Assembly: GCA_964430735.1 (NCBI GenBank)
Contig: CAYSFB010000005.1
Coordinates: 110,390-174,389, forward strand
Source of the DNA: an uncultured Planctomycetia bacterium
Lineage (GTDB): Bacteria > Omnitrophota > Gorgyraeia > 2-02-FULL-51-18 > JAGOUK01
Reading direction: 5' to 3'
DNA length: 64,000 nt
The translations under genes were made by a program, and so were the position numbers. The notes beneath the pieces were generated by a model. The model worked only from the letters and a program-made list of their open reading frames with translations. It was not told the DNA's origin and did no database searches. Shown here one piece after another: positions 11,240-46,300 of the stretch; position 1 is the first letter of the stretch; every line of letters begins with the position of its first letter.

Positions 11240-11265
11240 ACTTTTTTAAAAAAGCAGAACTTTTT

Positions 11266-22390: not shown

Positions 22391-25300
22391 GGCGCGCGAA
22401 TGGCCGCTTCGGGAGACGTCGTGAGTCAGAGCCGTGCGGCAAAAGAGGCCGTTCTTCTGGAAATGAATCAGCTCCGAAAAAGCGGATTTGATTCATGGCC
22501 CCTGAGCCAAAGACTGGATTGGCTCAAGTCCTGGCAGGATCGTGAAGTCATCGAGACGTGGGATTGGAACGAACTGATGTCCGAGGCAGGTCTGACATTC
22601 GGGCCAGGTCGATCCGTTGTGCCCGATGTCGGTGAGCGGGGGGTCGGCGTATCCGTATTTGATAAATTCAAAATTCTCAGTATCTCCGATGGCGCCGGTT
22701 CCGCTCAGCCCCGCTTCCTGACCGTCAACGGGTCGCTGCATGATTGCATCGCCCTGACTCTTTTTGACCCGGCCGGCCGCACCGGAGTTCTGTTTCACCT
22801 GCACTATCTCCAAGACGCAGATACGGTCATCTCCCGAGCCATGACCGAACTGGCTTCGCAGAGGTCCGGCGCAGAGCCGCGTTGGCAGGCTCGATTGGCC
22901 GGCGGTTGGTCGGAACAGTCCGAAGATCTGGCGATCCGAATCCTGCGGGCTCTGGAGCAGCGTCAGATTCCCGTGGAGAGCATCGACATCCTGAGCAGAC
23001 CTGCCAGGCCGATCCAGGATGCGGTCGACAGCGCGTACGGCGGGGTTCGCCCTGTTTTGGATGTCGCGACGGGAGCGCTTTATGAGATTGCCCCCGGTCG
23101 ATCCGGCGCGCGGATGGCATCGAGGACTTTGCGGGCGGGCACGGCATCAGTCTTGTTTGCCGTTTTGGCTAATGCCTATGTGTATGCGTTGTTCCGACAC
23201 CACCTTGCGGGAGCCCTCGGCCCCTGGACGTCGGGAATCGTCGGATTTGTTGTCAACACATCCATCTTCTTAACCTTTTCGGGCTGGTTTAGGTGGAGCC
23301 ATCTATCCGAGGAAGCCGCGTTAAACAAGGTCCGGAAGGTTCGGTTGGACTTGATTCGTCGGGCAACACTTGCGGAGGACTGGAATCTGGTGCGGGCCCT
23401 CAAGCGCACGACACCCAAGATCGTACTCCCATCCGAGTATTCCAAAGTCGTTTACGGCGGTAAGCAGAATACCGTGAGCAAGTCGGGCAAAAAGATACGG
23501 CACATACTTCTCACGCCCGAACTGGCGGTCTCTGCGCAGGCGATCCGCTATCTTCTGGTGCGCCGTTCGTTGGGTTTTGATTACGATGAACAGGTTGCAG
23601 CCATCCGCTCCTCAGGGCGCGGCGACATCCCGTTCTTTACCGTTTGGCAGCGCTTTTATTGGGTGAGCTACTCGGACCTGGAGACCTTAAAGCGCGCCCA
23701 TATGTATCCGCTCTTCAGCGTTTACATTCTGGTTCACGGATCGCTCATGAATACCGTTGCCCTGACGGCCTCCATCGTGCTCCGGCTCTACCATCAGGTC
23801 TTGGGCGGCGCGAAGCGGGAGGGGGATATCATCACCGTCCCGGCTCTTGTGACCGGCGTTGCGGTGGCGACATATGCCTTGGGTTTGGTTGCCGAAACAG
23901 GCGGAAGGATGCTGATTGCCGCAGCCTCGGGCGCCAATCCCTGGGATGGGCTGGCCCATATCCAAATGTCGTTCGCCGGGCATCTGGCGGTGATGAATTC
24001 GCTTTTGTCCTACGTGTATCTCAGGGAAACGATCGCCAAGTTTGATTTGGATGCCCAGCCCGAACGATCAGGTGCGCGGTTGGCGGACAATCCGGCGGTT
24101 CAGCAGGCGTTTGATCCTTCGCGCGGTATGCTCACGGCCCAAGACCTGAGCGTGGAAGCGGCACCGGCTGTTTTGGCCGGACAGATCCGGATGGTGATGG
24201 AAAAAACCGGCAAGAGCAGGGATGTCATCGCCGTATTTGATCTCGACGATTATGGGCATCTTCGGAAATCCGCCGTGTCGGCCGGAGCCTCAATGACGGG
24301 CATCATCTCGCATGAGAGTCTCGCCATCCGCATGGCCGGTTTGGGCATGCGCTATTTCCAAAGCATGCTCATGGAACGCGACGCGGACGGCCGCGTGGTG
24401 CAGATCAACGTCATTCCACGGCTCATTTCTGCGGACGCCGACGCCAGACGATCCAGTTTCGGGCGGGCGGTTCTGCTAATGACACAAGTCGTTCGTGAAC
24501 TGGGTCTCGACCCCTCTCAGATCGTTACGAACGACTTTTTTTCCGTGAACAGCGCTTTTAAAACCACGCTCGACCGCGTCGCCGCTCATGCGGTGCAAAA
24601 CCAGTCCGAGATCAGGGAAACCGGTGCGCGGTTGGCGGATCGCGCGGAGTCCGCTGCCTTGAGCGATGCTGAAAAATCCAGGCTCACCCCCGAGTATCGG
24701 ACCGCGGCAGAGTTTTTTGACAACTTCGAACGTCTGAAGGCCGCTCATCCGGATCATAAGTGGATCGTGGTTGGCCGGCACATGGAATCCACGTCGAACC
24801 TGTTCCGATATCTTCAATCCTACATCACGTATTCTCCGCCGACCCTTCTGGGTCTGTTGCAGCGGTATTTTATGGGCCGGTTCTTGTCCGCCAAGGGAAT
24901 TCAGTTCGACCGCATCATCGCAAGCGATCTGGAGCGCGCCCACAGCCTGGGTCAAAAAGTGGCGGATCAAAACTCCGCGGCTGTTGAAGTGAAGCGGAGA
25001 CTGCGGGAGGTCATGACGATCTCTCTCGGCGGCATCCGCAGCGACCTGTTCGACGTCGCGCGCGAAGCGCAGCGGCTGCGTTTCATGTCTCACCCCGAAA
25101 ATTACGACATTCCGGGATATTCCGGAAGGGAAGTCACGACCTATATCCAGGAGCTTTTTTACAAAGACGTTCCGGGCCATGCGGCGCGGACGACGTTTGT
25201 CGCGACGCACGGCATGACGATCATTCTACTGCTCCATTATCTGCTGAAGATTCCGTTCGAGAAGTATGAAGCCGTTTTTAAAATGACCGGCAATTCGCCC

Positions 25301-28300
25301 AATGTCGGCCTGAGCGTCTTCTCCTACGACCCGTTGGAACGCTCTTGGAAAATGTGGGTGTATGCGGACAACTCTTATCTGCCCGCCTGGGTCCGGCCCG
25401 AAAGTACGGGCGGGTTCTTCCGCATGTTGGAACGGATTTTTTACGTCGGTCAGGGCATTTACCGCATCGGTTTGCGGATATTTGGGCATCAGGGTTATGG
25501 TCAGCCGGATTACTTTCCGCTGGTCCTGCCGTTCGTCCGGCCTTCCTCAGCCCAGATCCGGGTGCTCAGCAAGATGGCGCATCACGGCGTTTCAAAGGTC
25601 CGCCCATCCGGAGATCAGGCAAGCCCTCCGTTCCAAGGCGCGCGTCTGGCGCGCGGCGATCGGGAGCGAATGGAAAACGTGCTCCGCCGCGTCCGTTACC
25701 GCAGGGGAGTCCTGCCATCGCTGAAGGTGGCCGCTCAATTGTACGACGAGCATGGCCGGTATCTTTCCTCCGGCACCAACCGCACGGGCAGGCCGCATGC
25801 AGAGCCGGATGCCGTGCTCAATGCCTTTAAGCGCAAGATCCGCGATTCTAAAAAACAGGGAATAGATTCGGAGAAGATCCACCTGGCCGAAACAGTTGCC
25901 GACTATCTGCATCTTCGGTGGAGGACGCTGGATCGCGATACGGATGAAGTGACTTTAGCCCTGCTGGATTGGCTGAATCTGGCCCTGAACACCCCTCTCA
26001 AAAATGCATCGTTTTACGTGAGTCTGGATCCCTGTAAGCAATGCGCCGGGCTGCTGAGCCGTTTGGGCGTCCGGCAGGTTTTTTACGGAATGTACGATTC
26101 GAATCCGCTTCAGGACGGAAGGGGCCTCTCCATTTTGAATCAGAACGGCATTCAGGTGCAAAACCATCTGATGGAGCGCTCGTTCGAAATGGAGAATGCC
26201 TTGTTTGTCCGCGCCGTCAAACTCATGCCGGCGCTCTACCTCATGCTGCACAATGCCAGGAAAAATCTTTTCGCAGCATGGTTCCGGCACACGTATGCGG
26301 ACCGCTTATCCGGTCTTGAGCTCACGCTTCGGAAGCATCGTGAAATCGCCGATATCCTCGACGCGCCGCCGAATTCCCCCGTGCTGAAGCGGAACCGGCT
26401 TGATTGGCGGCCGATTCGACATCACACCACGAACATCGCCCAGATGCGGATGTCGATGCTCACTCGCAGCATCGTCAATCCGGATTCCAAAAACACCCGG
26501 GTTCTTTACGGAGGGGCCGGCACCGATTTGACCGGTGTTTTGGAGACTTTTGGACCTGCGGATGTTGCCATGGTTTCGTATTACCACGGGTTGCAAAAGG
26601 AGGATTTGCAGACTGCGATCGAGATTCTGCAGAATTCAGGCGAGCAACCGCCTCTACTGGGCGACCGGCGCGCTGACGAGTACCGCCGTGTAAAAACCGT
26701 CTATGGTTTTGGAACCCGGCATTATCTCGAAAACCGTCACGAAATCACCAATGCGCTCGCCATCGAATTGGCTGCGGTCGGAGCGGAGCGGGCCCGGGTT
26801 GATGTGGAATCGGAAGTGCCGAGACTTATTTTTGAATGTCCGGATCCATGGACCGGAAAACTCAGGACGGTTTCTGTGCTTTTCATCGAAGCGGATATTA
26901 CTGAGTCTGACCGGTATCCCGACGCTTTAAAGGAATGGATGCGAAGTGGGTTCGACGGATACTTTCAAAAAGCGGGGCTCAAGATCGCCCAGGCCTATTT
27001 GACTCGGCCCGAATATCTCCGCGGCATCTACGACCGCATGAAGCCGGAAGGGTATTTTGCAACCGATGATACGGCGTATGTGGAGTTCGATCCAGATGTG
27101 GAGGCGGACATCTTCCAGGACTTTTCGGACTATTTTCCGGTCAAGGACGGCATCCGGAGCATTTATCCCGATGGGCTGGGGGAAGTGATCCAGGCTCGCA
27201 TTGCGGGAGACAGCGCCTTTTCAAGCCGCTCCGAGTTGACCTTGCGGCAGATGTACGGCTTTTATCTCCGGCTGCGGCAAAAAAGCGTCGGCGCTCGCCT
27301 GGCCGCGCCCGGGGAAATCACCGACCTGCTGCCGGATCCGGCTCAAGCCCTTCCGTACGAACAATTGATGAGCAATTACAAAGGCTATTTGAGCGAAGGC
27401 TTGATGCGGGACGTTCTCGGGACCTACACGGCGCATTTTGTCCCCGCTTCGCTGGATCCGCAGGCCCGGGAGACGGATGCGCGGATCGTCCGCGAAAATG
27501 CCGGAAGAGGTTACGCCGATCTTCAGGTGACGCGGGTGCTGGACTACCACCGCTACATCGTTCCGATGATCCGTCAGTGGAAGACGGAACATCCTGACAA
27601 GCGTCTTCTGGTGCTCAACGTGGACACCCACGACGATCTGGCGACGTCTTATTCGTGGGTCAACGACGCGAACTGGGCGTATCGGGCCAACAACAGCGGT
27701 TTGGCCGACGTCTATCACGTTTATCCCGACGAGAATTTCCGCGCGTTCGAGTCAGACGCGCCGACGCAGCCCAAGGCGTTGAGGGATCTGGTGCTGAATC
27801 CCGAGATCAATCCGAATAGCTATGACGAGGTCTGGGTTACCATCGATTACGACTACTACTCCGCCCGCAGCGGGTATTACGCGGGCTCGTACAACCTCGA
27901 CCGGTTCGAGAGAGATCTGGAGCTGCGGGCGCTGACGGGTTTTTTCAGGCAAAACCGAATCCGGGTCTCCAAGGTTGTCCCGGTCATTTCCAAAGAATAC
28001 CTCTATCACATGGAGCCGGCCGATCAGACGAAGTTCGTGGAGGAATTGACCCTCCAGATCCATGAAGCATTTGAGCAGCTCTCCCGCAGCCAGACCGATT
28101 ATCCGGCCTCAGACAAGCCGTGGACGGTCGAAGTCCCCGAGGGAGAGTCCTATTGGGAATTCGCGATGCGCCGCTCGCTGGGTATGGGCGCGCGGCTGGC
28201 CGGCGATCCGACGGATCAGCATGGGCGCATCGTCGAGTTGTTGGAAAAACCGGACACGCGCCTCGTCCGCATGCCGAGCAACGGCTTCGACCGGTACCGT

Positions 28301-31300
28301 ATCGAGGCCGCGGACGGCGGCGTTTTGTACGAGTTGGTGGGCCAAGAGTCCGGCTCCGGTCTTGCGCCTGTGTGGCTGATCGAGCCGATCGACCTTTCCC
28401 GACTCGAAGCCGGCGACGCGCGGATCATCCTCGACTTCCGCACCGAACCAGAAAAAACACAAGCCTTCGATGCTCTGGTCCGCAGCAAGGCGGAGCATGC
28501 TGCGGCCGCAGAGGATCCAGGCGTGCATGCGGATTATCTGCAATCCTCCATCAAGAGTTATCTCGATGCCGGGCTGCTGAATCCTCCAGCCTCTTCGACC
28601 GGCGATCTTTTGGCCGATCACTTTAAAGGAGCGTCGGTCCTGAATATCGGTCTGGAAACGGATGAGTACGGACAGTTGCGGGACAAAAATATCGTGACGC
28701 ATCTCAGGTCGCGCGGAGTGGACGCCGTCGGCGTCGATCCGCAGGCCCCGAACCGGCCGGATCTGGGACTGGTGAACGGTCTCGCGCAGAGACTCGACGT
28801 CCTGCCAGCCGATCGGTTCGATTGGGCGGTGAGCATCGGTCTCTTCGATCCCGGATTCATCGAAACACGGTTCATGAACGGCCGCCGCGCTTTTACCGAC
28901 GAGAGTTATCGCTCCGTGGCGAACGGACTTCGGCGCGTACTCAAGGACGGCGGACGCTTCCTGGTCAACACTTACAGCAATCCGAACGACAAGCTGACGC
29001 AGGCGCTCATCGACCGCGGATTCGTGCGGATGGAACAGGTAGACGGAACCGGAACCAGGATCTATATCAACCGCAAGCCCAAGCCCTCTCTCATGGAAGA
29101 CCCGGCTGTCCGCCGTTTTATGAAAAAGTTCGGCCTCGACGGCGCGCGGCTGTCATCCGCCCTATCAGATGTCATAGATGGCCGGGAAGGAGCTTACACT
29201 TCTCTTTGGGTGGAACTTTATCCGGTCATCATTCGGAAGATCGATTCGTTTGTCCAACGTGCCGGCAGCCCGACGGATCTGGACGTCAGCCGCATACAAG
29301 ATCACGTTGAGCAGGGTCTGCGGCGCATGATCCTGGAACAAGTCCGTTATCGCGAGAACATCAACTATGCTTTGATCCACACCATGATCCGCCGGAGGAT
29401 CATCGACAGTGCGAGGTCTCAGACCGGATTCAAGCGGGCGCGTCAAGTCCGTACTTACTCATCTGATCCGGCTGATATGACGGATCTTTGGCGCGACGAT
29501 CGACCGTCTGCGGAATCTGCTGCGGGTGATTCCACCGGTCCTTCGGCGGTAGTGAGCCAGTCCTTGGACCGGATGCTGAGCTTGGCCATTCAAGAGTATT
29601 TGGACGCTGCGCATGCCTACAGTCCGGACAAGCCGCGGAGCATCCTCAATCTTCTTTTGGGCGTCGGCCGGGATCGGGCGATCCAGATCAACAGGCCTTT
29701 ATTTGCGGCTGTGGCAAAACAGGCAGGCATATCCCAATCCCGGGTCTCTCAAATATGGAGCGGATATCTCAAGTATATCGTGGCCCATCCATCACATCGG
29801 CAGGAAATGATATCGCTGGTTCAGTATTATCCGTCGTGGCTCAATCCTCGAGATCGACGCTTCATGGGACATCAACGGTTGGGTGCGCGGCTGGCCGGCG
29901 TTTCGGAGCAGGATTTGAACGGGTTCGTGAGGTTCATCCTGTCAGGCCGGTTCGAGCCTTTTGATCCGGAGCACACGCGCATCATGGCCCGGGCATCGGA
30001 ATCGGGATCCGATGATCCGGTCACGGCCATGATTCTGGAATCGACCGACCAAGGACAGCAAAAATTGCAAACGCTGGCGGTGGTGAACCGCGAGGGCCGA
30101 TTGGTCGCGGGGGCTACCGTCAGCATGTGGTTCACCGGCGGGAAGAAGTGGCTGAACGTCATCCGCATGGACACGTATGAAAAAGGCCGGAGTTACATGC
30201 GCCGAGCCGCGCGGCAGTTGCTGGTGCAAGGCCAGATCGATCTGTGGAGGTCCAGCGACAATCTGTCCGCCGCCGGAATCAAGCTGCATACCAGCTTCGA
30301 GGGAGACGCCGAGATCGGGGTGCGCCGAGACCTCGGGGCGTACGATCTTTATCTGAAGCCGCAGACGGGCGCGCGGATGGCGGACGCTGATCTGACCGGA
30401 GAGCTTCGTTGGAAAAGCTGGTTCCGGCCGTGGATGCTGGATCTCGAAAAACCGGAGCAGCTGAATCTTTTCTTGCGCCGCCTGAATTTTCTTTCGGGCC
30501 TTCCGGGGTATCACGCTTCGAGAATGCTGGTTTCGACGGCTGTCCCGCTTCACATTTTTCAGGTGCCCGTTTTTAAGGCGAACTCCGCGTGGATGATGGG
30601 CTTCATGGCCGCTCACCTGATTCTGACGGCAAGGGGTAAGCGGTTCACGGAGGAGCAGAATTTGCGGATGCAATACGGCCGACCGGTGCTGCAGACATCC
30701 GGAGCGTTCCGTTACACCCAGCATCCATTTTATCTGGCCTATTTTTCGGTCTACCTGACACACTTTTTCATTCAGCCCAACTGGTTCTCGTTCGGGGCGA
30801 TGCTGAGCATGGCCGCTTTTACCGCGCTCCGGATCGTCGTCGAACAGCACGAAATGTGGGCCCTGCACGGCAATAAATATCTGGCGTATTGGCAGTCCAC
30901 CCCCATCCTGTTTCCCTGGACCCGGCCCGGCGGCCCGTCCGGCGCGCGGATGGCCGGTGATTCGGATCGGGCCAAGCGGATCCAGTCCGGACTCACCCGG
31001 GCATTGGCGGAAAACGCACGATTGCTCAGAACCATCGCTCGGGAAGGCGCGATGCCGGAAATCGATCTGGAAGAGTCGGTGCGCTTCGAATTCGGCGACG
31101 ATGGGCGCCTGGGCAATCTAGGGCTGATGGATCGCGGGCGATACACGCCCATCGGCAGAGAAATTGCCGTCCGCATCATCCGCGCAGGAGCCCTCATTCT
31201 CAGCGAATATTCTGATCGTTACCGGCTGAAGGACGGAAGTAAAACGGTCTACGTTCGAATTCAGGAGCCGTCCCTCTCACCGGCGGAAGAGGACGGCCGC

Positions 31301-34300
31301 GAACCGGGTGACTCCAGTCTGATCGAATCGGCCCGCAAAGAAATCCAGATTGCATGGAACGGGCTCATGGATCTCTCCAAAGACTGGACGATGGATCATC
31401 CGCAGTTGAATGCCTTGTCACATCTGCTGTCAGGCCTGATGACCTTAAACTCTCATTTGAGACAAATGATGAACAACGGCCCGCCCAGCGCCGAATCTAC
31501 CGCCCTTATCCACGAACGAATCCAAAATTGGGCGATCCCTCAAATCAAGGGCGCCATGAGCTTCCTGACTCAAAGCGATCTCCGACAGGCATTGAGCCCT
31601 TCTCAAAGAGTCGCTCTTCTGGGAGATGACGGACCGCTTCTCAAGGCCCAGGCCTATCTCCGCCGGTTTCTCGGCGCGCGGATGGCGACCGCGCGTTTTG
31701 TGGAGGATGGATGGACGGTGCTGCGCCGGCTGACCGACGCGGATTTTGGAGCAGGCGCGTCGCCTGAAGCTCGCCGATTTATGAGGGAGTATTCCGCCTT
31801 CAAGAACGGGTCCAAATGGCATGCCCAGCGCTTTGCTCATGAGATCGTTTCGCTGATTCGAGAAAAGGAATCGCTCTCGGACCTCTCGGAATGGGCAGTT
31901 GTCACGCCGCGCGTGATGAGCCGGAAGACCCCGGCTGTGCACGCTCTAGGCGAAAGCATCGCTTCCCAACTTGGAATCACGCACGTTCCCCTGTGGAGGA
32001 ACTCGCCTCGCGAAAACGGCGAGCATTACTCCCGCATTGCCACGGCCGAGGAGCGGATGCGATTCAAAACAGAATCCGCCGGCGACCTGATACTTTCCGA
32101 AGAGTTGAGAGGCAAAAAAATCCTGCTCATCGACGATCTCATCACGACGGGAGCGACGCTGCAGTCGGTGAAGCGCTTTTTGGAAGAATCCAACGGCGTC
32201 CGGAGCATCCGCGTGTACGCCGCCGCTTCGCTGGAGACCGACCGTGCGGACCTCGAATACGAACTGAACACGAATCTCATGAACCTGGCTGCGTTCGAGC
32301 TGTTGGACGCGATTTGGTCGGCATTCCTGCCCACCCATCTTGCGCTTCAAACGGTTCTGACACATGTCCATTTTGACCGTCTGGTGAGCGCCCTGTCTTA
32401 TCCGAGTCTGCAGGCGATCACCCGCGCAGCGCATCGGTATTTTACCGGATTCCGGAATCCGACACCCGAAGAACAGCGACGAATGGATGTCGTCGGATCG
32501 GAACTGAAACGCCGCGCCAAAGAGCATCGGGAAACGGCCGAGCGAATCGACGTCCACGCGTCGTTTCGCCGCGTTCCCGGACTCGGGTCGGGGATTCCCG
32601 TCGCGTTTATCGCCAAAGGCGACGGCGATGCCGCCTATCGTGCCTCACGGATCGAGACGCGCAATACCGCTAATCCGGGATCTCCAGCACAGGCTTTTGG
32701 TAAGCGCCGCGAATTCCGAGAAAACGGCTTTGTGGCTGTCGGCGAATTCAGCGACAACGGTTCCGTATCACACCAGTGGAAAATAGAATTATGGGACCCC
32801 AGAGGATTCGCCCAAAGAGGGGATGAAGCGATCCTGGGACTGCAGGACGAAATCAGGATCGTTCGTATGTCCGACGGATCGCTTGTGCACACGATCCGGC
32901 ATCCGAAGTTAACATCCGTACACACCATCGAACTGAACCCCCGCGACCCCAATCTGGCGCTGATCACCGCGACGGGTTCCGACAGGATCCTGGAAATCGA
33001 CCTCCGAGACGGGTCGATTGTTTGGGAGTGGAACCCCTGGAGGAACGGATACGGCGTCAACAAGCTCGGCTTGAGGATCTTCGAGGACGGCGATCCGCTG
33101 CCAGCCGGAGCGGCCGTCATCGGATTTGAAGAAGCGAAACGCAGGATGGAATCCGGTGAAGCGGTGCGCGAAGAGGAGAATCTGGTCCATGTTGTGAGTT
33201 TTGACCGCCCCGATGCGATCCTCGAAAAATGGGAAAAGACCGCGAGTCCGAACTGGGCCGGATACGGTCCCGACGGAACCATTCTTGCGACCTTGTTCCG
33301 GGTTAATCAGGCCGTGCAGATCGACCGCGCCGGCGGCGTCCGCGTGCTCTATGACGATCTTCGACGCCCGCACGCAATGATCCGGTATAAAAACGGTTAT
33401 CTGATTCCCGACACGATGAACGGACGGATTGTGATCCTTAAGGACGACTTCACGCTCGATCAGGTTTATGACTTATCCACCTTTCCGAACGAGCGCAACC
33501 TTCCGCATCGTTCGTACGAATGGCTCCAGTTCGCCCATCCGATATCGGACGATCTGATCGCGGTGGTCGATTCTCGCCGGAACAAAGTGTTCGTGCTCGA
33601 TCCGGAAAATTCTTTATATTCGGAATATCCCTATGACCCGAATCGAACGATGCAGGCGGTCCTTCCAGTGGTCGATGCGTCGGCCGCGCGGCTGGCGGCT
33701 CCGAAGACGCACGATTTATCCGATACGATCGGGAAGCAGATCGATGCTCTGGACGAGTTCGCCAGGCAGTCTTCGGTCCGAGTGCAGTACGAGAGCGAGC
33801 CGGAGCGCATCGAATTCGTTGATCCGAATTACGAAGAACGGTCCGGTCAATTCCAGCTGGGATCCGCGATCTTCCACGTCTTGGAAAACGCCATCAAATA
33901 TTCTCATCCCGGAGGCGCGGTCGCGGTCCGGACCCAGCGCGAGGCGGATGGAACGATCACCATCTCGATCCGCGACAGCGGGATTGGGATCGAAGAACCC
34001 TATTTATCCAATGTTAAAAAGGGGGTGTTGTATTACCGGCACCCCGCCGCCCAGCGCCACGCGAGAGGCAGCGGCCGCGGTCTGGTCGTTTCCAAGGAAA
34101 AAATCGAGCGGGTTTACGGAGGGACGTTTGAGATCCAAAGCGGAGGCTGGTCCGACGGCACCTCCGTCACGATGAGGTTCCGACCCGGCAGCCCGTCCGG
34201 CGCTCGGTTGGCCGCGTTTCAGGCGGACGCGGTGGCCGCGTTGCTGCGCATGGCGAACCAAGAACAGGATCCTGACAACAAGAAGTCGATCGCGGACTAT

Positions 34301-37300
34301 GCGGCATCTCTCGCACGGACCCGACTTCTTTTTGAGGGCCCTCCGATCGGCATGGATCCGGAGGAAGCCGCCGTCCGTGCCGGCCGGATCGACCGGATGT
34401 TGTTCGAAGCCGCCAAGAACCGGCGCAGTAAATTTGACAACAGCCCGCTCGGCACCGATTTGAGTCAACGCTCGACGCATTGGAACGATTACCGGGTCTC
34501 AATAGACCGCTTCTTTGGATATGTATCTGATCGCGATCAGGAGGAGAAGAGCGCATCCGGTGCGCGTCTGGCGGACGGCGGGAATAACGCTGGACGCGCG
34601 GGAGATTTAGCCAGGGCTTCCGACCCTTTGAGGGAATTGGAGAAGTTCGAAGAGATCTCCCTTCGGATTTACGATTCAGGGCTTGACGTCAATTCAAAGT
34701 CCATTCAGTCCGAGGAAGAGCTCAAGATTTGGGGCGACTTGCACAGAGCACAGTCCGAAGCGCTTCGCTGGATATTGCTTGATATTGAAAAAAATCCGAT
34801 CGGCCATGATGGAGAATTACTGCGATCAGCGATTATACGCGCCAAGGACCTCAACGGTAACATCACCCGACTTTTGGGACGTACCGCATGGCGAAAATTC
34901 TCCGTCTCCGACTCTATTCAGCTGGCGGCTGTCAAAGCATTGAATCAGACTTTTGAGCAGAATAAATTAAATATCGAAAGCCTCGCCTATTATTTGAGCG
35001 CGCAGGTGTATGACCCAAAAAGCGTTCAGCCGGAATGGATTCGTGAGCTGGAACAGTCGCTTTTGGTTTATCAGTTGAACCATCTTTTATTTTATCTGAC
35101 GGAATATATCCAGGAAGACGAGGAATCCATCCGGGGTGAGAAGCTGATGCTTCTCAGGTCCATTTTGAATTGGGTCGGCGGATCCACTGTGATGCGGCAG
35201 TATCTCAGCGCAGATATGCCGGACGGGCAAGATGAGGATATCCAGCGTCTGCAAGACCTCCTCGCTAAGGCCCGGGCCGCAGTTGACGCTTCAGGCGCGC
35301 GGCTGATGGAAACATATGCTGCGGCATTGGCGCGTTTGAATGCCGGAACTCCGGACGTCGCGACTTCCAAAAATACCGGGATGGATATGTCTTCCAAGTT
35401 CAGACATCCGCAGCTGATCGGCGAGTTGAAGCGGCTCAGAGATGAATGGGAAAAGAAGCCCGTGCTTTTTCCTCGTGAAGTGGTTGTCATCGGTCCCGGA
35501 TCGAGTTATCCGTCCGTTCAAAACGCGGATAAGCAATCCTATCAAATGGTCGAAGCGGCAGTCGGATTAGGGTTGGGCAACAGCGGCATCCGTTTTACGG
35601 TCCTCGACGAATTGGAAAGGGTGCTGGATGTTGTTGACCAAGCCCGGCATCCCGCTCTGATTTATGAGATCGAACCCTTCGACTTGAAAAAGATCACTGA
35701 CCCCGAATCGGATGCGCGTTCCGCGTATACCGTTTTTGCCTCAGAATTAGAAGAGTACCGGCAGCCGACGTCCTCCGGCGGCGAACGCTACGTCATTCCG
35801 TTCGACAGGTTTTCACCCCACCCCATCGAGAGGTTCCGCGGTCACGTCGAAAAGCTGGAGTATCCGGAAGCGTCGGCGGACCTGATCGTGGCGACGCACG
35901 TTTTTCAGTGGGCGTTCGAGTCCGACAAGACGATGGTCAATCGGTTCGATCTCATGGCCAAAGTGATCAGGTCGCTGCGTCGGGGAGGGGAGCTGATCAT
36001 CGACCAGGCCACATTCAGTTATGTGCAGGACGACGCCCGGCGGCGTCACTTCGAACGCGAAATGTCCAACCGGGACCTCTCTGTCGACGTCCGCCCGAGC
36101 GGGAACCTGGTGGTGATCCGCCGCATCGGCGCGCGCCTGGCGGCGAAGAGCAGCTTTTTGGCGAAAAGGATCCTGGGCCAGTATCGAGGCTTGGATGCCA
36201 GGATACGACGGCTTCAGAACGCCTACCCGAACGGCTATCGCGGATCGATAGACCAGGACGCGAGAGGGGAGCAGGTTCGCGAAAAATTCATCAGACTGAT
36301 CCGGGTCGGCCGCAGCGTCCGTCAGAACCTGGAGATCATGGGCTTTTCAGACATTGCCGGTGAACTTCATGCGAGGGTCAGGAGGCTTATCGAAGCGATT
36401 CAGAACAGCGAAGACGGGGTGTTACCGGCTCAAATGCAGCAGATGAAGATGATGCTTGCTTTGGAACATGGAGATCTCGATGCCTTCCAGTCCGATCTGG
36501 AGGGGTATCTGACGGGTAAGAACGTGCCGGTTTTCCGTGATTTGAACGCAGATGACCGCCGTCTTCAGATCGAATTCATGATTCGACAGGCGGGCGATCA
36601 CTTGTCGGTTTGGGGAAGCGCTTCCGAAAAAATTCTGGCGGAGCTCACGTCCCGGGCAGTTGCCGCGCATGACCATCGATCGATTCGTTCGATCTCTCGG
36701 GCGAGAAAATACTTGAAGGGCTGGATCAAGGCCGCCAGTGAAAAACCGCTGACGTATCCGGAGCGATTTAGGATACCCAAAGGGTACTCCGACTGGAGCA
36801 GGGCATACCCCGCCTATCAACCGCCTTATTATGTGGCGCTCGAAGTTCTGAGAAGCATTTATGGCGCGAGCCCGAACGGATATGCGGATCCGGAGGATTT
36901 GTCGCAGCTCCAGGGTAAATTCGCCAGCTACGAGGGGCCGGTGCGCTTCGAGACTTTGAACGGCAAGCAGTATCCCCTGAATCCCCGGGGAAGGCATGGA
37001 ATTCGCGGTCGGGGGCTTTTGGGCCGCTGGGGAGCCAATTTTGCAGCGGATCCTTTGGTCACCCGCATCAACCCAACAACGAATCGGCTGGAGTTCTTGG
37101 CGGTTCAGCGTGAGGACACGGGCCAGTGGTCGATTCCCGGAAGATTGATGGCACGTGATGAAGATATCCCAACCGCATTAAAAAATGCCATTCAGCGCAA
37201 AACGGGATTGGCGCTGAGTTTTGAGGGTGCTGAAGAAATTTATCGGGGTTACGTCGAGAACCCCAGAAATACCGATCACGCCTGGATTGAGACGGTGGCG

Positions 37301-40300
37301 ATGCATATTCATCTGACAAAGGAACAAGCGGTCGAGACCGACAAGGTTCCCATGCGGGGAGAAAGCGGAAGTCTCGTGAAGTCCGTTCAATGGCTGGAGC
37401 CGACCCCTGCCGTATTAAGCCATCTCTATGCCGATCATGCCGACCTCATTCGGTCGGTGCTAAACGGGTCTGAGCGTACAGGCGCGCGGATGGCGGAGCG
37501 GACGGCACAAGAGGTTCTCCGCAAACACCTGGATCGGCAATTGGGGGCCGATCAGATCGCGCGGGTCGAGTATGACTCGAGCGTGGCTCCGTTTCATCTG
37601 ATGCTGGCTTTTGGTCGTGATGGAAAAAACATCGGGTTGGCGGTCGTCAAAGACGGTGTTTACGCTCCGCATTCCATCGAGTTGGCGGAGGGCGGCACGC
37701 GATTTGAGGCGCATCCCCATCGCGATGGTATACAGGTGGTCACGTTTGACGGACCGACCGACGCCGATATCGTGGACGGTTGGATCCTTGGCAGGATCGG
37801 GACGAACGGCGAATGGGGCATCGAAAGCATCATCGATAATCGCCGGCCGGTTCAAGTACCGCTGGCCGTTTTGTTCTCGGACTGGCCGATTCTGCCGGCC
37901 AGCCCCGGCGGTGACGACGGCAGGGAATCTCCGGCCCGGGTTCAAGCCGCCGTCATGGATTCCTGGAGGGCCCTCGCGTCGGATGATGTGCAAAAAGCAC
38001 GCGCCATACTCGACAGACTTCCGCCGGATCGCACAGCTTACAAGATCATCGGGCCGGATGATTTGGCCCGTGTCCGCAGCGTAGTGAACGGGACCACCTA
38101 CCGTCAGGCCGGCTGGCTGCGGATGGAATTCTTCGCAACGGATGGCGTGCGCCGGCTGGGTCTCTCCGAAGCGGATCTGCGGCCATCCGCCAACATTTTG
38201 CCGATCGAGAATGTCCTTCAGCATGTGTTGACCAGGGGCGAAAAGGCGGTATTGCTGCTGTACCGCGAGCCGGGTCCCGCCGGAGCGATTCGATTCTTTT
38301 GCTTCGATTCGGGTCCCGGCATGGACATCGATCAGGTCGTAAATCACGGGTATCGCGATCCCGAAACGACGATGCTCGGCAGAGCCATCCAGTTCATGAT
38401 CATGTCCCGGTCCAAACATTGGATTCTGGGGTCCCGCAACCAGGTTTGGGATCAGGATCAAAAGACCGTTCGTCCCATGCACATGAATATGCCGGAGCGC
38501 GGCGTGTTGTTCGCGTCGCATTTTGCGCAGCCGTCGGGGGCGCGGCTTGCCGATGCGGAAGACGACCCGGAGAGCGTGCTGTCCGATTCTTCCGCCTTGC
38601 CCGCTGAGGGCGGAGCGATGATCGGCAAGAATCCGGCCGTGACTCCGGATGAGCGCCGCCGTGTGCTTGCCGAAATTCTCGGAGACGCCCCGCGGCTGGA
38701 ATCGCTTGCCTGGTCGGTGGTAAGGAACTCGGGATTTTTGCAAGACACCTCGCTGTATGCGGATGCGGTTCAGGAAGTGCTTCAACACGTCCAGCGTAAT
38801 CGACAGACCATTCTCGACCACTATCAGCCCGAGAGCAGGTCGACTCCTCCGGCTGACTGGGTCATGGGGTATATGAATCTCCGGCTTCGGGACGTACGCC
38901 GCAATCAGCTGCGGTATCAATCGCGATTCAAGCGGCAGGCGGATATGAGGTCCGACAGCCGGAACGAGGACGGGGACGGCTTGAGCGTGCTCGACAGCCC
39001 GGCCCCGACGCCGGACCCGAGCGACAGCATCGCCGGACGCGAGAGCGTGATTCTTTCCGGATTCTTTGTTCAGGCGCTGTCCTCTGATTTGCGTGAGATT
39101 TATGAGGCGTATTACATCGAGCATAAGACGATGGCCGAAATAGCCCGGCTGACAGGACTTCCGGAAGGTACGGTCAAAACACGTCTCAAGGCCGTCCGCG
39201 ATCGCATCAAAGGACACTTTTTGAACGGCGACCACGTGGAACGGGATAATCCGCGCGAAGAAGCGCTCATGGATTACCTGCGCCGCCTCCGCCGAGAAAA
39301 GAAGCTCGACGAAGCCGACTGGCGACTGGTCCGGCTGTTGATCTCGGGACTGCCTGACGAAGAGATCGTGCTTGCGATGAGCGGGGAGTTCGGGTTGGCC
39401 CGGGAAGGGGTCCAGGCCCTTGCGGAGCATGTGATTCGGCTCATTCGAGCGGAAGACAGACCAGTTCTCGAGGAAGACATCCGCCCGACACCCGACGAAC
39501 TCGAAGAATACAGCTTCCTCGAAACGCTGCGCAGGGTCCGCAAGAGGAACAAGCGCCTCCACGCCGAGCATATGGATTCGATGATCCGCAAAAGCACTTC
39601 TGCCGCACGGCTTGCAGAAAAATCGGAGTCCATGGACCAGCTTTATGAAAATCTGGGTCCTTACGGCCGTTATGCGGCCGGCGCTCTCACCGGATTTTTT
39701 CTTCTGCCGATGCAGACGTTCGCTCCGATGTCGGCCGACACGATCTGGGTGCATCGGAGCATCGGGGTTGCGGCCGGACTTGCGGCGGCATGGATCTGGG
39801 GCTGGCGCTACAGACGCAAGCACCGGCAGGCTGACGGGAAAGGCGCCGTCATTCCGGCCACCGCGGTCGAGAGAAGGCGTTATGGGTGGGAGGATCTCGA
39901 GCGGGAAGGGTATTCGGTCGTGATCGAGGAAATCCGGGGTGATGGGCGCCAAGAAACAACGCTGTCGGGCTACGTGACCCAAAAGTCACCGGGCCAAAAC
40001 GTCCCCCGAAGGTTGGAAGGGTCGCACTTCCTCATTTCGATAGACGGCTTTAAAAATATCTACATTCACTTTTTTTACCCGGAATTCCCCATGCCTAAGA
40101 CTGAGGCAGAAAAGGTCGGCCGCGGCGCGGCCCTGCTGCGGCATATTCTGGACCCGAAGAAGTATGCCGGTTACAGGATTTTTGCCGATGCAAGTCCCGA
40201 GTTTATGAGCTCATTTTCCCGGATGACGGACTTCCAGCCGAGTGTGAGGAGCGGGGACCGCGAAGCCTTCGATGCCTTTGTCGTCAATAAAGTCAGAGAT

Positions 40301-43300
40301 TCGGCGGCAGAGGGCGCTTCTCCGCATCGTGTTCTGGAGTTGAGTCGAACGACGCTGTACGGCGTGGTTCCTCCTCCTCAAGCCGCCCGGCTGGCAAAAC
40401 TGGACCGCCCCGCGGCAATTCATAAGGAACTTCAGGCGCTCGGCCGGGCGGCGGCGGGAAAAAGGTTCAGCTGGACGTCCAGGCGCATGGGCCGACTTCG
40501 GACCGCCGCGTCGATGCGGCTGTTGCCGGCGACGTCGAACCTGTTGGACATCGGCCGCGCGCATCTTCTCGATCAGAATGACACGCACAACCCGGACCCC
40601 ATGAACACCCTCATGACCCTGGCCATGTTCATCCTGGACCGTCCGCGGTCCGCGTCAGCAAAGAACCTGGCGGCGCTCGAGGCGCTGGTCGAACGGTACA
40701 ACCGGGACGTGCGCGAAAAGCGGATTCCGAACCGGTTCGGTTATTTGAGCGTGCCGCTTCTGTTTGTCATCAATTTATCCCCCTACTTCGAAGACACGGT
40801 CAACAACCACACGGCGTTCCGTCGGTTGAACCGAAACCTCGCGCTGCTGCCGGGCAAAATCGGAATGCAAAGTGTCGCCGCGGATCTGGCGTTCAGCGCG
40901 ATCCACGCCAACTGGAATATCGAGCCGGTGGACATGGAATCTTCCTACATGTCCTTCGTGCGCGCCGAACTCGCGCTGAAAATGGGCGACGCCTCGCCGG
41001 AACTGGCTTTGGCGCTCGCCTTGTTTTTGGCTTCGATGCAGCCCGCCTTGCACGCGGGTCAGGGCGGAGGGTCGGCCGCGCAAGAAGACGATGCCCGCAT
41101 GGTCAAAGCCGCGCGCAGATATCTCGGTGTTCCGGCAAGACGCCAGCGTTTGATAGCCTGGCTGCGAATTCAAATCCCCACACTTCAATCGCGTCCCGAG
41201 CTCGCGAGAGTTCATGAGATCGGACTGCGGCACACGATCGACGCCGTCAAATTTGTGGGCAGATACCTGTCCGCGCCGTTGGACGAGGTGATTCTCCGGC
41301 CGTCAGGTTCTGATTTTGACATCCTGATCCAAGCCCTTTTGAGCATCAAGCGGCGGGACGACAGCTTCCCTGAATCCTCCAAAAAGCGGCTCAATCTTTA
41401 CCGTACGTCGGCGGAATCGGGCTCAACTCGACTCCACTATGTCGCCAATTACCTGGCATCCGCCGCGCGGATGGCGACAAAGACAATGTCTCCCGTGGAT
41501 CAAGCGGTTGCCGCGGTCGGCTATTACCGGACGGCGGCGGTCGATGCCGCCACGGTTCCGAAGTTGAAAAAGCTCAAGTCCTTTCTGTACAAGCCGGCCC
41601 AAGAGTATCTGAAAGAGTTCATTATGCTGACGGATGATTTTGAGCGTTACGTACGCGATCAGAAGTGGTCGCAGGCTACGACGACCCTCATCGATATCTG
41701 GGAATTCGTCCGGCGTAAAGACGCCGTGATTTTTAGGGATGCGTTAGGCCGCCAATTTTCGCTGCTCGACGTTCAGAAGACACTCCTGATCTGGGCTCAG
41801 GGCATGAGAAGCGCCGGCCGAGGCGACGCGTATTTTAGGGCGGTTATGAAGATGATCAGGGAACTGTTGTTCAACGCTTCCTGGTACGGAGGCGTTCCTT
41901 CGGCGAGCATGTTTGTGGATGCCCCCAAACCCAGCGTCGAACAGCAAATAGGCGACATTTTGGATTCGGTGATCCCGACCGAGGAATATTATGCGCAGCC
42001 CGGAGCGTTCGCCCGTGAGAAAGAGCATCAGAGGCTTCTGGCCGCCGTGGTCCGCTGGATTCATCTGGCTCGCAATGTCCTGTCGTCCGTGTACCAGATC
42101 AAGGATCTCAACCCAAGTCTTCAGGGGTATCAAACCGGGGACGACATCAACGCATTTCTCGCGGAAGGCAGTTATATCAACCAGGCACTTTCGCTGCTGG
42201 AAGAATTGAAGATTTTTTTGAGAAACCCGTCACCCGAATCCGCCGGCACGGCCGATGTCGCCGATCCGTTCATCGACAGCCCCGCCTCCGTCTTGTCGGC
42301 ATTGCGCCGCGCCGGTGTCGTCCATATGGTCGCCGCCAACGGGCGCAAGCGTTCCTTGGAGCGTGAATTGTCCTCCTTGGCGGGGACAGCCGCCGTGCTC
42401 GACGCCAAGATCACGGATCGAGCCGCCGTCATCCGATCGAAAAAAGCGGTCCGTGTCTACCGCATTCAGGATGACGCGATGATCTATGCGGGCGAGATCG
42501 ACTTCGGCCGTTTGGATTGGACTCCCGCTCCGCGTATCAGAATCGGCATTTATCCCGCCGGCGCCGAAGACCGGATTGTCGTCGACATGCCCGACCTTCA
42601 TGACCCGGAACGGTCGCGTGCCGCGCTTTTTTCACTTCGGACGGAACCGTTCGATATGGACAAAGACTTGCTGGCGTTAGGAGGGCATCCGTCCATCCGG
42701 GTCGTCAAAGGATCGCTGAAGGTCGATCGGAACGAGGGGCTGATTCGGGCATCCGTTTTGAACGGGCAAAAGGCCGAACCGGCCGAGTATCGTCTCGTCA
42801 ATGGTGACGCGGTGGATCGGTCTCCCGGCAACCTCGTAGGATCGGGAAGCGTCGAGGATATCAAGAACTTGATGCATACGCAGATCGTCGCCTTTGATCA
42901 AAACGAGGTCATCGTGGACGTCCTGGGCCGATCCATCGCCGGGGATGCGAGAGGATTCGAAGATCGAGGCGAATTGTACACCTGGTTCATACGGATCATG
43001 AGGTCGCAGCATCTGATTGACCGGGATGATGAAATGCCGCCGGTTCTGACCCACGAAGTCATGCATGACGACGGGATCTACGAGATCTACTCCCTCCATG
43101 CCGACGACAAGCTGGTTCTTACGATCCGGGAAGCCGGATCCGATCCCGACCGGGGCCGGGCGGAGGAGTCCGGCGCGCGGATGGCGGTTCAGGAATGGGA
43201 ATCTGATTTTAGAAGGATTCTGGATCTGGCCGGACCGGAAAAGCAGTCGACGGCGTCGGAAACGTTGGTTAAAGAAATGATCGGGGTATACGCGAAATCC

Positions 43301-46300
43301 GACAGACTTCGGCGCATGATCGAGGATCTGACGATGAATTACGACGGCGATGTCGAATATGCGGGTACCAAATATCCCTGGACCCCCGGCAGGAAACTGG
43401 CGGCCGAGGACGTCTTGATGGCATTTGCGCTGATTTTGATGGAAAAGGCCTCTGTGACCGGCGCAGCTGACCGTTTCCGCGCTGAGGACTTGAAATTCAT
43501 CGGGCAGATGATCGAACTTTACAACCAGCGCCAGGCGCCCAGCGTTTTGATGGATGTGCCGTCGCTGTTCAATCTGGCGCTGGCTCCGCCTTTCCGGGAC
43601 GGCGATGCGTTCGTCCTGTATTCGCGCCAGCTCCAACATCTGCCTTCTCGGGAGCAGGCGATCCGGGCCGTTGCTCTGGACAGTCTGTTCAAAGCCATCC
43701 ACCTGTCCGGCGTGATCCTCTGCAACGGATCCGACGGCGGGCTCGATTTCGAAGTCATCAACGACCATTTGAAGTTCATGTTCGGTGAGCTCCGTCGCGA
43801 TGACCTTTCCCGGGATGAAAAAGTTGCGCTGCATCTGGGCGTCGGGGCTTTGTACGGAATGTGGAAACTGGTGCTGGAACAAAAAGACGGCATTCACCGG
43901 ATTTTGTACGAATTCACCCCGGATCTCCAGAAACGGGTTCAGGACCCTTTCCGCGACAACATGGATCTCGTCGACCAGGCCTATCAGGCACTGTGGCCCC
44001 CCTCCGGTCCAGACGCATCCGGTCCGGATGCGCCCGACGACTGGATCGTGAAGGATGTAGCCGGCGAAGATCCCTTTTTACTTAATCTGTATTGGGTGTT
44101 TTTCTTCGAAGTGCGCCATATTTTGTTCGACGGCGCGCCGGCATCCCAGTTGACCGTGACGGACATCTTTTTGAAACGCGATCGTCCCGAAGCAGTTCGA
44201 TACCTGACGGACAGAGTCAACGAATCGGCCGAACGCTGGAAAAAATTCCTCGAAGCCGACCGTCCTGAGCGCTTCGACAGCGTGTTCTATCTGAGGCGCC
44301 ATAGCAGGACCACGCTTAACCATGTCCGGAATCGCAAAAATCTTTTTGATTCGATCCAGGTGGATCGGAATCTCCAGGAGGCGCGCAAAGGCCTGTCCTC
44401 CGGCGCGCGGATGGCGGACGGGCGGCAGAGCTCGGTCGGGCGGATCATCGAACGGCTGCGCGAGATCAAGCAGACGATTGATGAGGGGGTCGTGGATCCG
44501 GAAGACCCGGAGCGTTTTAAGTTGCTGCGCGAAGCGGCCGGGTTCCTCAAGTACAAGACGCCGTCGGTGCGGCCGGCGGTGGTGCGGATTCTCAAGTCGG
44601 CGGGACTCGTGCGCGCCCGTGCGCCGCTTCTGGACGCGCTTCAGGACGAGGAAGCGGACACGGTTGCGGCGTCGCTCGTAGCGCTCGGCATTCTTCACAA
44701 GGGTCAGGCGAACCAGAACCAGCTGCAGCGCGAGGACATTGCGACGATCGCGTCCTTCCGGTCTCATTCGAGCGAGACGGTCCGGCACGCCGTTCTCACC
44801 GCGCTGCGGTGCATGGACAGCGCGGCGGCCAAGCTTAAGTTGATGGAGCTCCTGCGTCAGGCGTCGGAATCCGAACAGCAGGTCATTCTCAAGGAGTTGA
44901 GCCTGACGGGGGATTCCGGGCTCATCACCCCGATCCTGCAGGAACTCAAGGAACTTCGGAAGGCCGGCGAGGTCGATCCGGCGCGTGCGCCGTTCCATAT
45001 TTCGGTGCTGCTCAAACCCGAATGGATCGCGGAGCATCTGTCGGAGCGCAACGCCCAGATTCTGGCCCACCGGTTCGGTTACATCGACGCGTATGTTCTG
45101 AACCGCGTCCGGCAGGGGGATGCCGCCGTGCGCGAGACCGTCAAAAATCTGCTGTATCAGACCGGCGTCGCCACCCGTCCGATGTTGAGCCGGCTCGAAA
45201 AAGCGGCGGCGGAGCCGGGGCTGCAGGAGGAGTTGCTGAACCGCTGGAGCAGCCGGGTCAACGCAATCTCGATGGGCTTCCTGCCGCAGCTCGAAGAACA
45301 GTACCGGGCCGTTCCTGTCCGCCTGGGCCGTTCCACCGACGCCCGGATCGACCGCAGCCTGCTTTTTGCGGCGCTCAAATCGTACGACATGGACAATATC
45401 CGCTCCAGGGTCGAGACGGAACCGTTCCGCAAGCTGGATCGGGAGGCTGAGTACGCGCGATTCGCTTTTATGCCCGCCCGCACGTTCGAGCGCAATTTTA
45501 AAAAAGCGGTGGAATCCGCCGAGCAGATTTTTACCTCAAATCCGCAGCTCGGGAAGCTGCTGCTTCCTTACTGCGTCTTTGAGGCGATGGCGCTTCAATG
45601 CGAAGTCCGATCGGAACCTGGAACCGAATGGGGGCTGAAGTGGCAGGCCCGGTGGCGGTCGGCCGCCCGGGTTCTGGAAGCGGACGGGTCGAGGATTCGT
45701 CTGAAGGACGAATATGCCGGGTTTGAGCTCCCGGCCTTCGGTCCGAAGTCGCGCCTCACGGCCCGCGCCGCCGCGGACCGGTTGATGCTGGACCGTTCGC
45801 GTGAGTGGTGGAAGTTCGCGGTTCTGGACATCCGATCCATTCGCCGGGCCGACCGGCTCCTGTCGGGTTTTGCTTCCGACGCGAGATGGAAAAAGCTGTC
45901 CTATGGTTCTCAATCCGCGCTCAAGCTGCTCGCGTACGACCTGTTTGCGAATTCCGGCAAAACGGTGTCGGACATCCGCGCCGAGTGGAAATCCGCTCTG
46001 GACCGGATCCACGCGGAGGAAAACAGCCATCCGGACATCCTCCCGTCGGCCGGCTTCGAAATCCAATCGTCGAGCGTGCCGCAGGAAAAAATGTACGCCT
46101 GGAAATCGGCCCTCCAGCACTTCGGCATTCCGAGTCCCGACCGGCCGGAGTTCCGCGGAACGGTCGAATCGGCCTTCGAGCCCTCCAGATCCTCCGAGGC
46201 GCTGGTGACGGCGATCGCGGCCCTGAACCGGATGGGCATGCATTCCGTCGACGGTGAGGGGACCACGTTTCACTATTCCGTCGCGGGCGACCTGGGCGAC

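Follow-up and report, generated by a model that had tools for sequence, protein, structure and literature searches.

Introduction

Giant proteins have been described from several Omnitrophota, and include a 'multi-enzyme' class of at least 10 thousand amino acids (Nielsen & Lui 2026, 10.64898/2026.06.07.730766), the Archaeovorins (West-Roberts et al. 2023, 10.1101/2023.11.21.568195) and the examples of Seymour et al. (2023, PMC10066038). As far as the available text of these reports extends, HATPase_c and Methyltransf_11 domains have been catalogued in such proteins and HEAT repeats are their commonest domain. Cleavage of the giants has been hypothesised with the cleavage points stated to be unknown (West-Roberts et al. 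2023, 10.1101/2023.11.21.568195), and whether they act as one chain or as cut pieces is, in the same available text, an openly stated question. That text makes no mention of sigma-70 modules, HPr modules or a recurring delimiter, and a literature search returned no paper joining Omnitrophota with polyprotein. Here we analyse a 64,000-nucleotide stretch of contig CAYSFB010000005.1 (assembly GCA_964430735.1, positions 110,390 to 174,389 of the forward strand; hereafter the window, whose own numbering is used throughout) from an uncultured bacterium labelled Planctomycetia and placed in the Omnitrophota by GTDB. A scan of the whole window for open reading frames (ORFs) revealed a single stop-free ORF of 11,777 aa (20690..56023, + strand), which is divided by a short recurring peptide, the delimiter [GA]AR[LM][AS], into protein-sized modules that include an extracytoplasmic function (ECF) sigma factor. 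We propose, at a probability of roughly 45%, that the delimiters are processing sites and that the giant is a precursor which releases its modules.

The gene belongs to the Omnitrophota giant-protein kind. In common with the described members, its product combines an N-terminal anchor with many unrelated Pfam domains on one polypeptide that is mostly Pfam-dark and unique in sequence; HEAT_2, HATPase_c and Methyltransf_11 recur, and the relatives of its head come mostly from Omnitrophota metagenome-assembled genomes (MAGs). By contrast, Archaeovorin/Dockerin-type giants exceed 30,000 aa and carry HEAT, glycosyl transferases, TPR, C39/S8, SecA or dockerin, whereas the present protein has 11,777 aa and shares only HEAT_2; Pfam scans of it gave no match to glycosyl transferases, TPR, C39, S8, SecA or dockerin. 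An earlier, sequence-only reading of this stretch had proposed that a sigma factor is either released from the giant or sequestered within it, and that either would be new. This was overstated, since Omnitrophota giants with signalling Pfam modules have been catalogued and their cleavage has already been hypothesised. What the delimiter provides is the first concrete, testable set of candidate cut sites in such giants, together with a way to divide them computationally into foldable units.

By analogy, the closest mechanistic parallel is MARTX autoprocessing (PMC2900308). MARTX proteins are likewise modular mosaics of effectors on one very large exported polypeptide (export being predicted here). 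In MARTX an internal cysteine protease autoprocesses the chain at small-Leu-small sites, within unstructured inter-effector segments, and the freed modules act in the cytoplasm of another cell. The [LM]-[AS] pair of the delimiter resembles the MARTX Leu-small junction, but here an Arg precedes the Leu/Met, so the site is not small-Leu-small. Moreover, Pfam scans of the whole protein found neither the RTX or glycine-rich repeats nor the Peptidase_C80 domain of MARTX, the signal is N-terminal and Sec-type rather than a C-terminal type I secretion signal, the modules include transcription-type proteins, unlike those of MARTX, and processing is putative.

Sigma factors and viruses offer two further comparisons. 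Activation by proteolysis is known for pro-sigmaE and pro-sigmaK of Bacillus and from RseA-type regulated proteolysis, where a short pro-peptide or an anti-sigma is cut; to our knowledge, none of these systems cuts a sigma factor out of a polyprotein. The unit described here resembles ECF (group 4) sigma factors in having sigma2 and sigma4 without sigma3, core-binding and helix-turn-helix (HTH) motifs and a C-terminal extension, but differs from them and from proteolytically activated sigma factors in lying some 6,000 residues into a giant ORF, with no adjacent anti-sigma gene or domain found. Viral polyproteins (picornavirus 3C, potyvirus NIa) similarly consist of protein-sized units and a short, lineage-specific conserved peptide, which in viruses co-evolves with the protease; the giant differs in being encoded by a chromosomal bacterial gene amid housekeeping genes, with no cognate protease identified.

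A recurring peptide divides the giant protein into modules

The pentapeptide [GA]AR[LM][AS] occurs 34 times in the giant against 0.37 copies expected from shuffles (maximum 4), an enrichment of about 90-fold, and the stricter GAR[LM] occurs 29 times against 0.9 expected. A Ser usually stands directly before the pentapeptide, which is absent from other ORFs of the window, checked over 9,075 aa. The copies start, on the + strand, at 22391, 23105, 24071, 24623, 25637, 27290, 28187, 29141, 29882, 30368, 30941, 31673, 33683, 34199, 34559, 36128, 37481, 38537, 39602, 40382, 41462, 43172, 44402, 46907, 48689, 48998, 50150, 50936, 51302, 52565, 53204, 53816, 55295 and 55994, and a GARLM variant starts at 35294 (+). 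The terminal copy, AARLA, is followed by SISA and the stop codon (55994..56023, +), placing it 9 aa before the stop. A literature search with the motif strings returned only noise.

The delimiters set off a head of 567 aa and about 33 modules of 103 to 835 aa each. No delimiter interrupts any of the 13 mapped domains, which start 3-70 aa past one and can end 6 aa or less before the next. The HPr profile is matched over positions 2-77 of 81, beginning 17 aa past a delimiter, and a HATPase_c domain ends 6 aa before one. Several modules have complete stand-alone proteins as their counterparts: an ECF sigma factor, HPr, a GHKL ATPase, a deaminase, a histidine phosphatase, a phosphoribosyltransferase (PRTase) and a winged-helix array. 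The sites themselves sit in short (~15-residue) hydrophilic loops: bulky hydrophobic residues fall to a fraction of 0.14-0.20 only between positions -5 and +10 around them, against 0.32 gene-wide, and an AlphaFold2 (AF2) model shows ~33 disordered residues following the delimiter at aa 5950. Because delimiters in hydrophilic loops bracket protein-sized modules, the layout is the one expected of processing sites.

All five intervals to which the sequence-only reading had given exact coordinates turn out to be delimiter-bounded modules. The special regulatory toolkit that it saw in them dissolves, as the domains it named make up 5-6 of the ~33 modules; the sigma-like units are modules like the rest of the mosaic and form no regulatory island of their own.

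The last two residues are small in all four full-length giants, with SISA here and TQAA, ERAA and GRAA in the relatives P0002, P0004 and P0011, and this pair may be a conserved C-terminal signal.

A complete ECF sigma factor lies between two delimiters

The module at aa 5950-6304 (38537..39601, +), closed by the delimiter AARLA (39602..39616, +), is a bona fide ECF sigma unit with a conserved C-terminal extension of ~125 aa. Its core (aa 6006-6179; 38705..39226, +) has a sigma2 domain upstream of sigma4, without sigma3, and carries the motifs DAVQEV, WVMGYMNLRLRDVRR and GTVKTRL. The ECF sigma-4 domain previously read here was confirmed, with Pfam Sigma70_r4_2 matching above its gathering score (E=2.2e-10, 40.5 bits, cut-off 25.7) and a phmmer search of PDB matching region 4 of RpoE, SigW, SigL and SigH. 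Pfam Sigma70_r2 itself gave no match in the module. Aligned by hhalign with a profile of 24 ECF sigma factors (Sigma70_r2 in 23 of the 24, r4_2 in all of them), the module scored 99.6% probability and E=2e-24 over profile columns 32-195, which span both sigma2 and sigma4. An exhaustive HMMER search returned mostly free-standing ECF sigma factors of ~200 aa, some of them matched end to end (residues 5-193 of the 200 of P0051), and a word-indexed homologue search gave one match. The best Foldseek matches of a low-confidence single-sequence AF2 model (predicted local distance difference test, pLDDT, 56) were all ECF sigma factors, including the isolated region-2 structures of sigmaE and SigC (TMt 0.5-0.6). 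The unit is internal to the 11,777-aa ORF, not a free-standing protein of ~170-250 aa, and no anti-sigma family was detected by Pfam in the modules flanking it.

A hidden Markov model (HMM) of ECF sigma factors, run over 84 giants and giant fragments, matched only this protein (aa 6006-6179, domain E=5.6e-35) and P0004 (E=3.5e-13), and a metagenome scan for sigma-bearing giants likewise returned only the P0004 locus (L081). In both proteins the sigma unit is flanked by delimiters and carries a C-terminal extension of ~100-125 aa, while the identity between the two sigma modules is 26%; the P0004 copy matches Pfam r4_2 at E=7.7e-11 and Sigma70_r2 at E=0.011. A complete ECF sigma unit is therefore conserved along with its delimiters in two very divergent giants, inside a nearly Cys-free, signal-anchored protein. 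Were the sigma factor released, it would be the first produced from a bacterial polyprotein; were this to happen in another cell, it would be an effector that hijacks transcription.

It had been argued that a tethered sigma factor cannot join RNA polymerase. This is too strong, as ECF sigma factors with large terminal extensions are functional; the real obstacle to function while tethered would be topology, if the protein is exported.

Relatives carry lineage-specific delimiters

Relatives were gathered via the head domain, giving 142 tblastn-confirmed loci in GTDB genomes, 79 of which were kept: 46 labelled Omnitrophota/Omnitrophica, 29 labelled 'uncultured Planctomycetia/-ales' (third-party annotation MAGs), 3 from one Eisenbacteria MAG and 1 labelled proteobacterium. 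The 'uncultured Planctomycetia/-ales' label on 29 of the 79 may be a labelling issue. The head family is multi-copy per MAG, with 15 of the kept loci coming from one Omnitrophota MAG (JBLINS01 among the examples; L002-L080). Head identity to the present protein is 21-34%, the best value to any GTDB representative being 34%. All full-length giants found have in common a signal-anchor and the conserved head domain, the signal-anchor being present at the N-terminus of P0002, P0004 and P0005 as well. Otherwise the giants share only one or two modules with each other, at different ordinal positions.

Among the 42 family ORF segments that reach 2,000 aa, 22 carry GAR-type delimiters, with a density of 1-4.4 per 1,000 aa, and P0004 (5,289 aa) has 16 GAR[LM]A sites. 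Different peptides recur in other giants: RAE[VA]R is present 12 times in P0002 (6,433 aa) and RSELR 12 times in P0011 (4,829 aa), each against 0.01 expected. The pattern x-[AS]-x-hydrophobic-x is common to GAR[LM]A and R[AS]E[VL]R. Two homology blocks between the present protein and P0011 cross a delimiter, and both times the GAR[LM]A of the one shares its linker with the RSELR of the other. In the first block KPQTGAR/MA is aligned with KARSELR/EG (slash after the Arg), the Arg falling in the same column; in the second both delimiters lie in the same linker past the GHKL domain. From these alignments GAR[LM]A and RSELR are positionally equivalent; each appears to have changed in concert within its lineage, and the simplest explanation would be a trans-acting reader that co-evolves with the motif.

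Processing sites or linkers of an intact chain

If the delimiters are processing sites, they would be recognised in trans, most likely by an endopeptidase that cuts at the invariant Arg or beside it. The modules would be freed as separate proteins, among them the ECF sigma unit together with its conserved C-terminal extension. We favour this reading because of the enrichment of the motif, the whole-protein modules, the conservation of the delimiters and the alternative lineage motifs in the same linker, the last of which argue for a co-evolving reader. It is further supported by the fall in bulky hydrophobic residues around the sites, by the conservation of the sigma module together with both flanking delimiters in P0004, and by the position of the final delimiter next to the stop codon.

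Several observations weigh against it. Cleavage is putative, and the link of the head to the TIKI/TraB/ChaN/Ere superfamily is a weak fold lead, coming from a model with a pLDDT of 61. No protease domain was found by Pfam scans of the giant. About 13 of the 42 long relatives have no exact recurring 4-mer, and within the giant several weak internal hydrophobic segments (Kyte-Doolittle no higher than 1.9) make the topology ambiguous. One of the two sigma-like modules (discussed below) is an unproven sigma domain. Lastly, a codon bias within the motif hints at an additional or alternative role at the level of DNA or RNA. The suggestion of the sequence-only reading that modules are released gains indirect support from the delimiter-bracketed layout.

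The alternative that survives best, although we consider it somewhat unlikely, is that the giant remains intact as a tethered multi-enzyme or regulatory scaffold, its delimiters being linker motifs (docking sites for a chaperone, secretion factor or partner, or a structural cap) and its sigma factor acting, or being held inactive, while attached. In its favour, Pfam found no protease in the giant, some modules are of the HEAT/Adaptin-like scaffolding type, the x-[AS]-x-hydrophobic-x pattern could serve for docking as a beta-strand, and the available text of the published work leaves open whether the giants function as one sequence. Set against this are the whole-protein size of the modules and their mosaic sharing between giants. 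In addition, the delimiter only 9 aa short of the C-terminus links nothing, and it is not obvious how a sigma factor inside a 1.3-MDa chain, exported or anchored, would reach RNA polymerase.

The delimiter is biased at the codon level

The codons used in the motif of the giant are GGC in 22 of 29 cases, GCG in 26 of 29, CGG in 23 of 29 and CTG in 14 of 18, against backgrounds of 0.39, 0.40, 0.31 and 0.36, respectively. The favoured series is GGC-GCG-CGG-CTG-GCG, giving the nucleotide consensus GGCGCGCGG[C/A]TGGC (GGC GCG CGG [C/A]TG GCS), and all 18 exact matches to GG[CT]GCGCGG[CAT]TGGC in the window lie on one strand, in frame 0 of the giant ORF. The P0004 locus shows the same codon bias. 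In 11 relatives with a GC content below 50% (101 sites) the motif Arg is encoded by CGG in 58% of cases against a background of 15% (p=1e-23), and the use of GGC, GCG and CTG is shifted likewise; in these genomes of 45-48% GC, AGA is the commonest Arg codon, yet the motif favours CGG. At the same time, many sites keep the peptide with other codons (AGG, CGA or CGC for Arg; TTG or CTT for Leu), and both the peptide and the nucleotide level appear to be constrained.

These data support a reading in which the delimiters act primarily at the nucleotide level, either as in-frame joints for the exchange or insertion of modules by recombination or as translational pause sites, with the peptide a by-product. 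The strong synonymous bias, extending to the low-GC relatives, the exact matches confined to one frame and strand, and the mosaic module content of the giants all speak for it. Against it stand the many sites that retain the peptide despite differing codons and the switch of whole lineages to unrelated peptides at equivalent positions, and 15 nt is short for homologous recombination. We judge this reading improbable, and note that it is compatible with processing.

The ATG, CTG or TTG codon at motif position 4 also raised the possibility that delimiters are internal translation starts. This was rejected as the main reading because no Shine-Dalgarno-like consensus stands at a suitable distance, GTG is never seen and the products would be nested, not discrete.

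Composition and signal of a possibly exported protein

The megaprotein had been described as membrane-anchored, and the single ORF does begin with a predicted Sec-type signal peptide or anchor, in which aa 7-28 (20708..20773, +) are hydrophobic, with K4 and R8 preceding and AAA-S after them. The giant contains 11 Cys among its 11,777 residues (0.09%), and the other giants P0002, P0004, P0005 and P0011 contain 0-0.13%; in the neighbouring genes Cys accounts for 0.6-3.3% of cytoplasmic proteins and 0.1-0.2% of two envelope-type proteins. Two of the 11 Cys are zinc ligands of the deaminase (HAE...PCxxC). Intact catalytic motifs include the phosphoribosyl pyrophosphate (PRPP) loop of the PRTase, the N, G1 and G2 boxes of the HATPase and His15 of HPr. 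We infer that an export-like composition in a protein whose enzymes depend on ATP or PRPP would, by analogy, be the pattern of translocated effectors. More speculatively, the modules could act outside the cytoplasm of the producer, for example in a host or prey cell, as the extreme Cys depletion, the signal-anchor and the retained ATP- and PRPP-dependent catalytic motifs suggest.

Taken to its full extent, the idea would be that of an effector polyprotein exported by a parasitic or predatory Omnitrophota-like bacterium and cut at its delimiters after delivery. Some 30 proteins would then be freed in the target cell, among them an ECF sigma factor redirecting the RNA polymerase of the victim in the manner of phage sigma factors, alongside HPr-like, GHKL, winged-helix, deaminase and PRTase modules, and GAR[LM]A, RAE[VA]R and RSELR would be a co-evolving protease code. 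We regard this complete scenario as doubtful, well below the processing reading from which it extends.

A module at aa 3227-3417 (30368..30940, +) resembles ICMT/PEMT-type membrane methyltransferases, contains hydrophobic segments and is shared with P0011 across a delimiter. It is among the few candidate membrane-embedded parts of the giant and bears on its topology.

GHKL domains, further sigma-like regions and the anti-sigma proposal

Two GHKL ATPases had been proposed. That at aa 4332-4503 (33683..34198, +) is clear, matching Pfam HATPase_c at E=8e-16 with intact N, G1 and G2 boxes (LENAIKYS, DSGIGI, GSGRGL). The other, at aa 5598-5949 (37481..38536, +; hereafter the GHKL2 module), directly precedes the ECF sigma module. 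Its N-terminal part is homologous to P0002 and its C-terminal domain (aa ~5835-5949) is a probable divergent GHKL. No match to the module was obtained in Pfam or in PDB, with either the single sequence or a profile, but its family alignment contains invariant ENxxQH and DSGxGM motifs and a GTLF motif, and aligns with the N-box and G1-box of the confirmed HATPase_c (hhalign P=1e-4, 56% probability).

The peptide SPARVQA (aa ~5744-5750; ~37910..37930) stands between the two parts of the GHKL2 module, whose N-terminal half is homologous to a P0002 module ending at a RAEAR delimiter at the equivalent point. SPARVQA appears to be a decayed delimiter, and the GHKL2 module two ancestral modules fused.

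The order of these modules recalls the earlier suggestion that an anti-sigma and a sigma factor are co-translated and freed on demand. A cis-encoded anti-sigma such as the GHKL2 module would sequester the sigma factor until a signal releases it; the probable GHKL domain ends at the very delimiter that opens the sigma module, and GHKL anti-sigma kinases, RsbW and SpoIIAB, do exist. Those kinases regulate group-3 sigma factors, though, not ECF sigma factors, and the Pfam search of the flanking modules detected no anti-sigma domain. GHKL2-type domains also occur in giants and in small proteins without a sigma neighbour. Furthermore, the module preceding the P0004 sigma factor is unrelated to the GHKL2 module (hhalign P=0.41); with different modules upstream of sigma in the two giants, conserved pairing of an anti-sigma with the sigma factor is unsupported. 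We consider the proposal very unlikely.

Besides the ECF unit, two more sigma-like regions had been named; in comparisons with sigma factor profiles only the ECF unit at 38537..39601 is a clear match. The module at aa 2818-3064 (29141..29881, +), closed by the delimiter GARLA (29882..29896, +), may be a highly divergent ECF-sigma-like unit, with an r2-like region at aa 2821-2924 and an HTH-like segment at ~3007-3022. In its favour is a collinear hhalign match over r2 to r4 (P=0.0055). Its Pfam matches are below threshold (Sigma70_ECF E=0.0017, 18.7 bits, cut-off 21.1; Sigma70_r4 E=0.14), the ECF HMM gives a weak domain E=0.78, and it had no match in PDB and no homologue in the word-indexed search. 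The third region, a region-4-like HTH at ~52420..52555, matched no Pfam family at E<=10 and is the tail of a winged-helix module. Paralogy between the two sigma-like modules was rejected, self-BLAST showing no similarity between them. Also set aside was a weak signal resembling sigma2 (aa 9506-9561, domain E=0.059), as scanning the whole module gave no Pfam support.

Other modules, the head domain and the gene neighbourhood

The HPr-like domain reported at aa 9334-9436 (48689..48997, +) was verified (PTS-HPr, E=1.6e-13); the His15 context GIHLHP is kept, the Ser46 position is occupied by Glu, and the window yielded neither enzyme I nor EII. The module at aa 10205-10625 (51302..52564, +) is made of five tandem winged-helix repeats of ~65 aa (HTH_11/PF0610-like_N), the array spanning aa 10207-10549 (51308..52340) with units 31-35% identical to each other. 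A cytidine/dCMP deaminase module (aa 1650-2200; 25637..27289, +) retains HAE and PCxxC. His_Phos_1, PRTase, methyltransferase and HEAT/Adaptin-like (HEAT_2) modules were further identified, and most modules are Pfam-dark. One of these dark modules contains two copies of a ~112-aa repeat, 36% identical (aa 11207-11505; 54308..55204); this repeat and the winged-helix array were the only internal repeats detected by self-BLAST.

The head module (aa 1-567; 20690..22390, +) is conserved, Pfam-dark and the handle by which the family of these giants is recognised. Its invariant residues are D82, H84, N86, Q90, E112, E149, G163, E165 and Y170, and its fold gives a weak lead to the TIKI/TraB/ChaN/erythromycin esterase (Ere) superfamily. 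A PDB sequence search with the head-domain profile gave nothing useful and a word-indexed homologue search with the head domain gave no match.

The giant gene is chromosomal, with housekeeping genes on both sides: GcpE, RNase PH, Ham1, an SNF2 helicase and a divergent AsmA-like gene upstream, and MqnA, SdhAB, ThyA and DHFR downstream. A Logan contig from an independent assembly (run SRR14271366) is 100% identical to the 3' 7 kb of the ORF and the downstream genes. An artefact, be it misassembly, chimerism or decayed non-coding DNA that lacks stops by chance, can be dismissed for practical purposes, as nothing except the many Pfam-dark modules was found in its favour and it conflicts with 35 kb of stop-free sequence at 59% GC, a single frame in which several domains exceed their Pfam thresholds, retained catalytic motifs, the independently assembled 3' end and the 142 homologous head-domain loci. 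An Rfam scan of the window identified no RNA family.

Elsewhere in the window, a neighbouring gene (2084..7183) encodes a 1,699-aa protein with an N-terminal hydrophobic segment, a GH2/glucanosyltransferase-like TIM-barrel domain and 0.1% Cys, which is probably another large envelope or secreted protein. A racemase-like ORF (10415..11239) and a radical-SAM ORF (10972..12015) overlap by ~270 nt as listed, and the second of these probably starts downstream of its first listed ATG.

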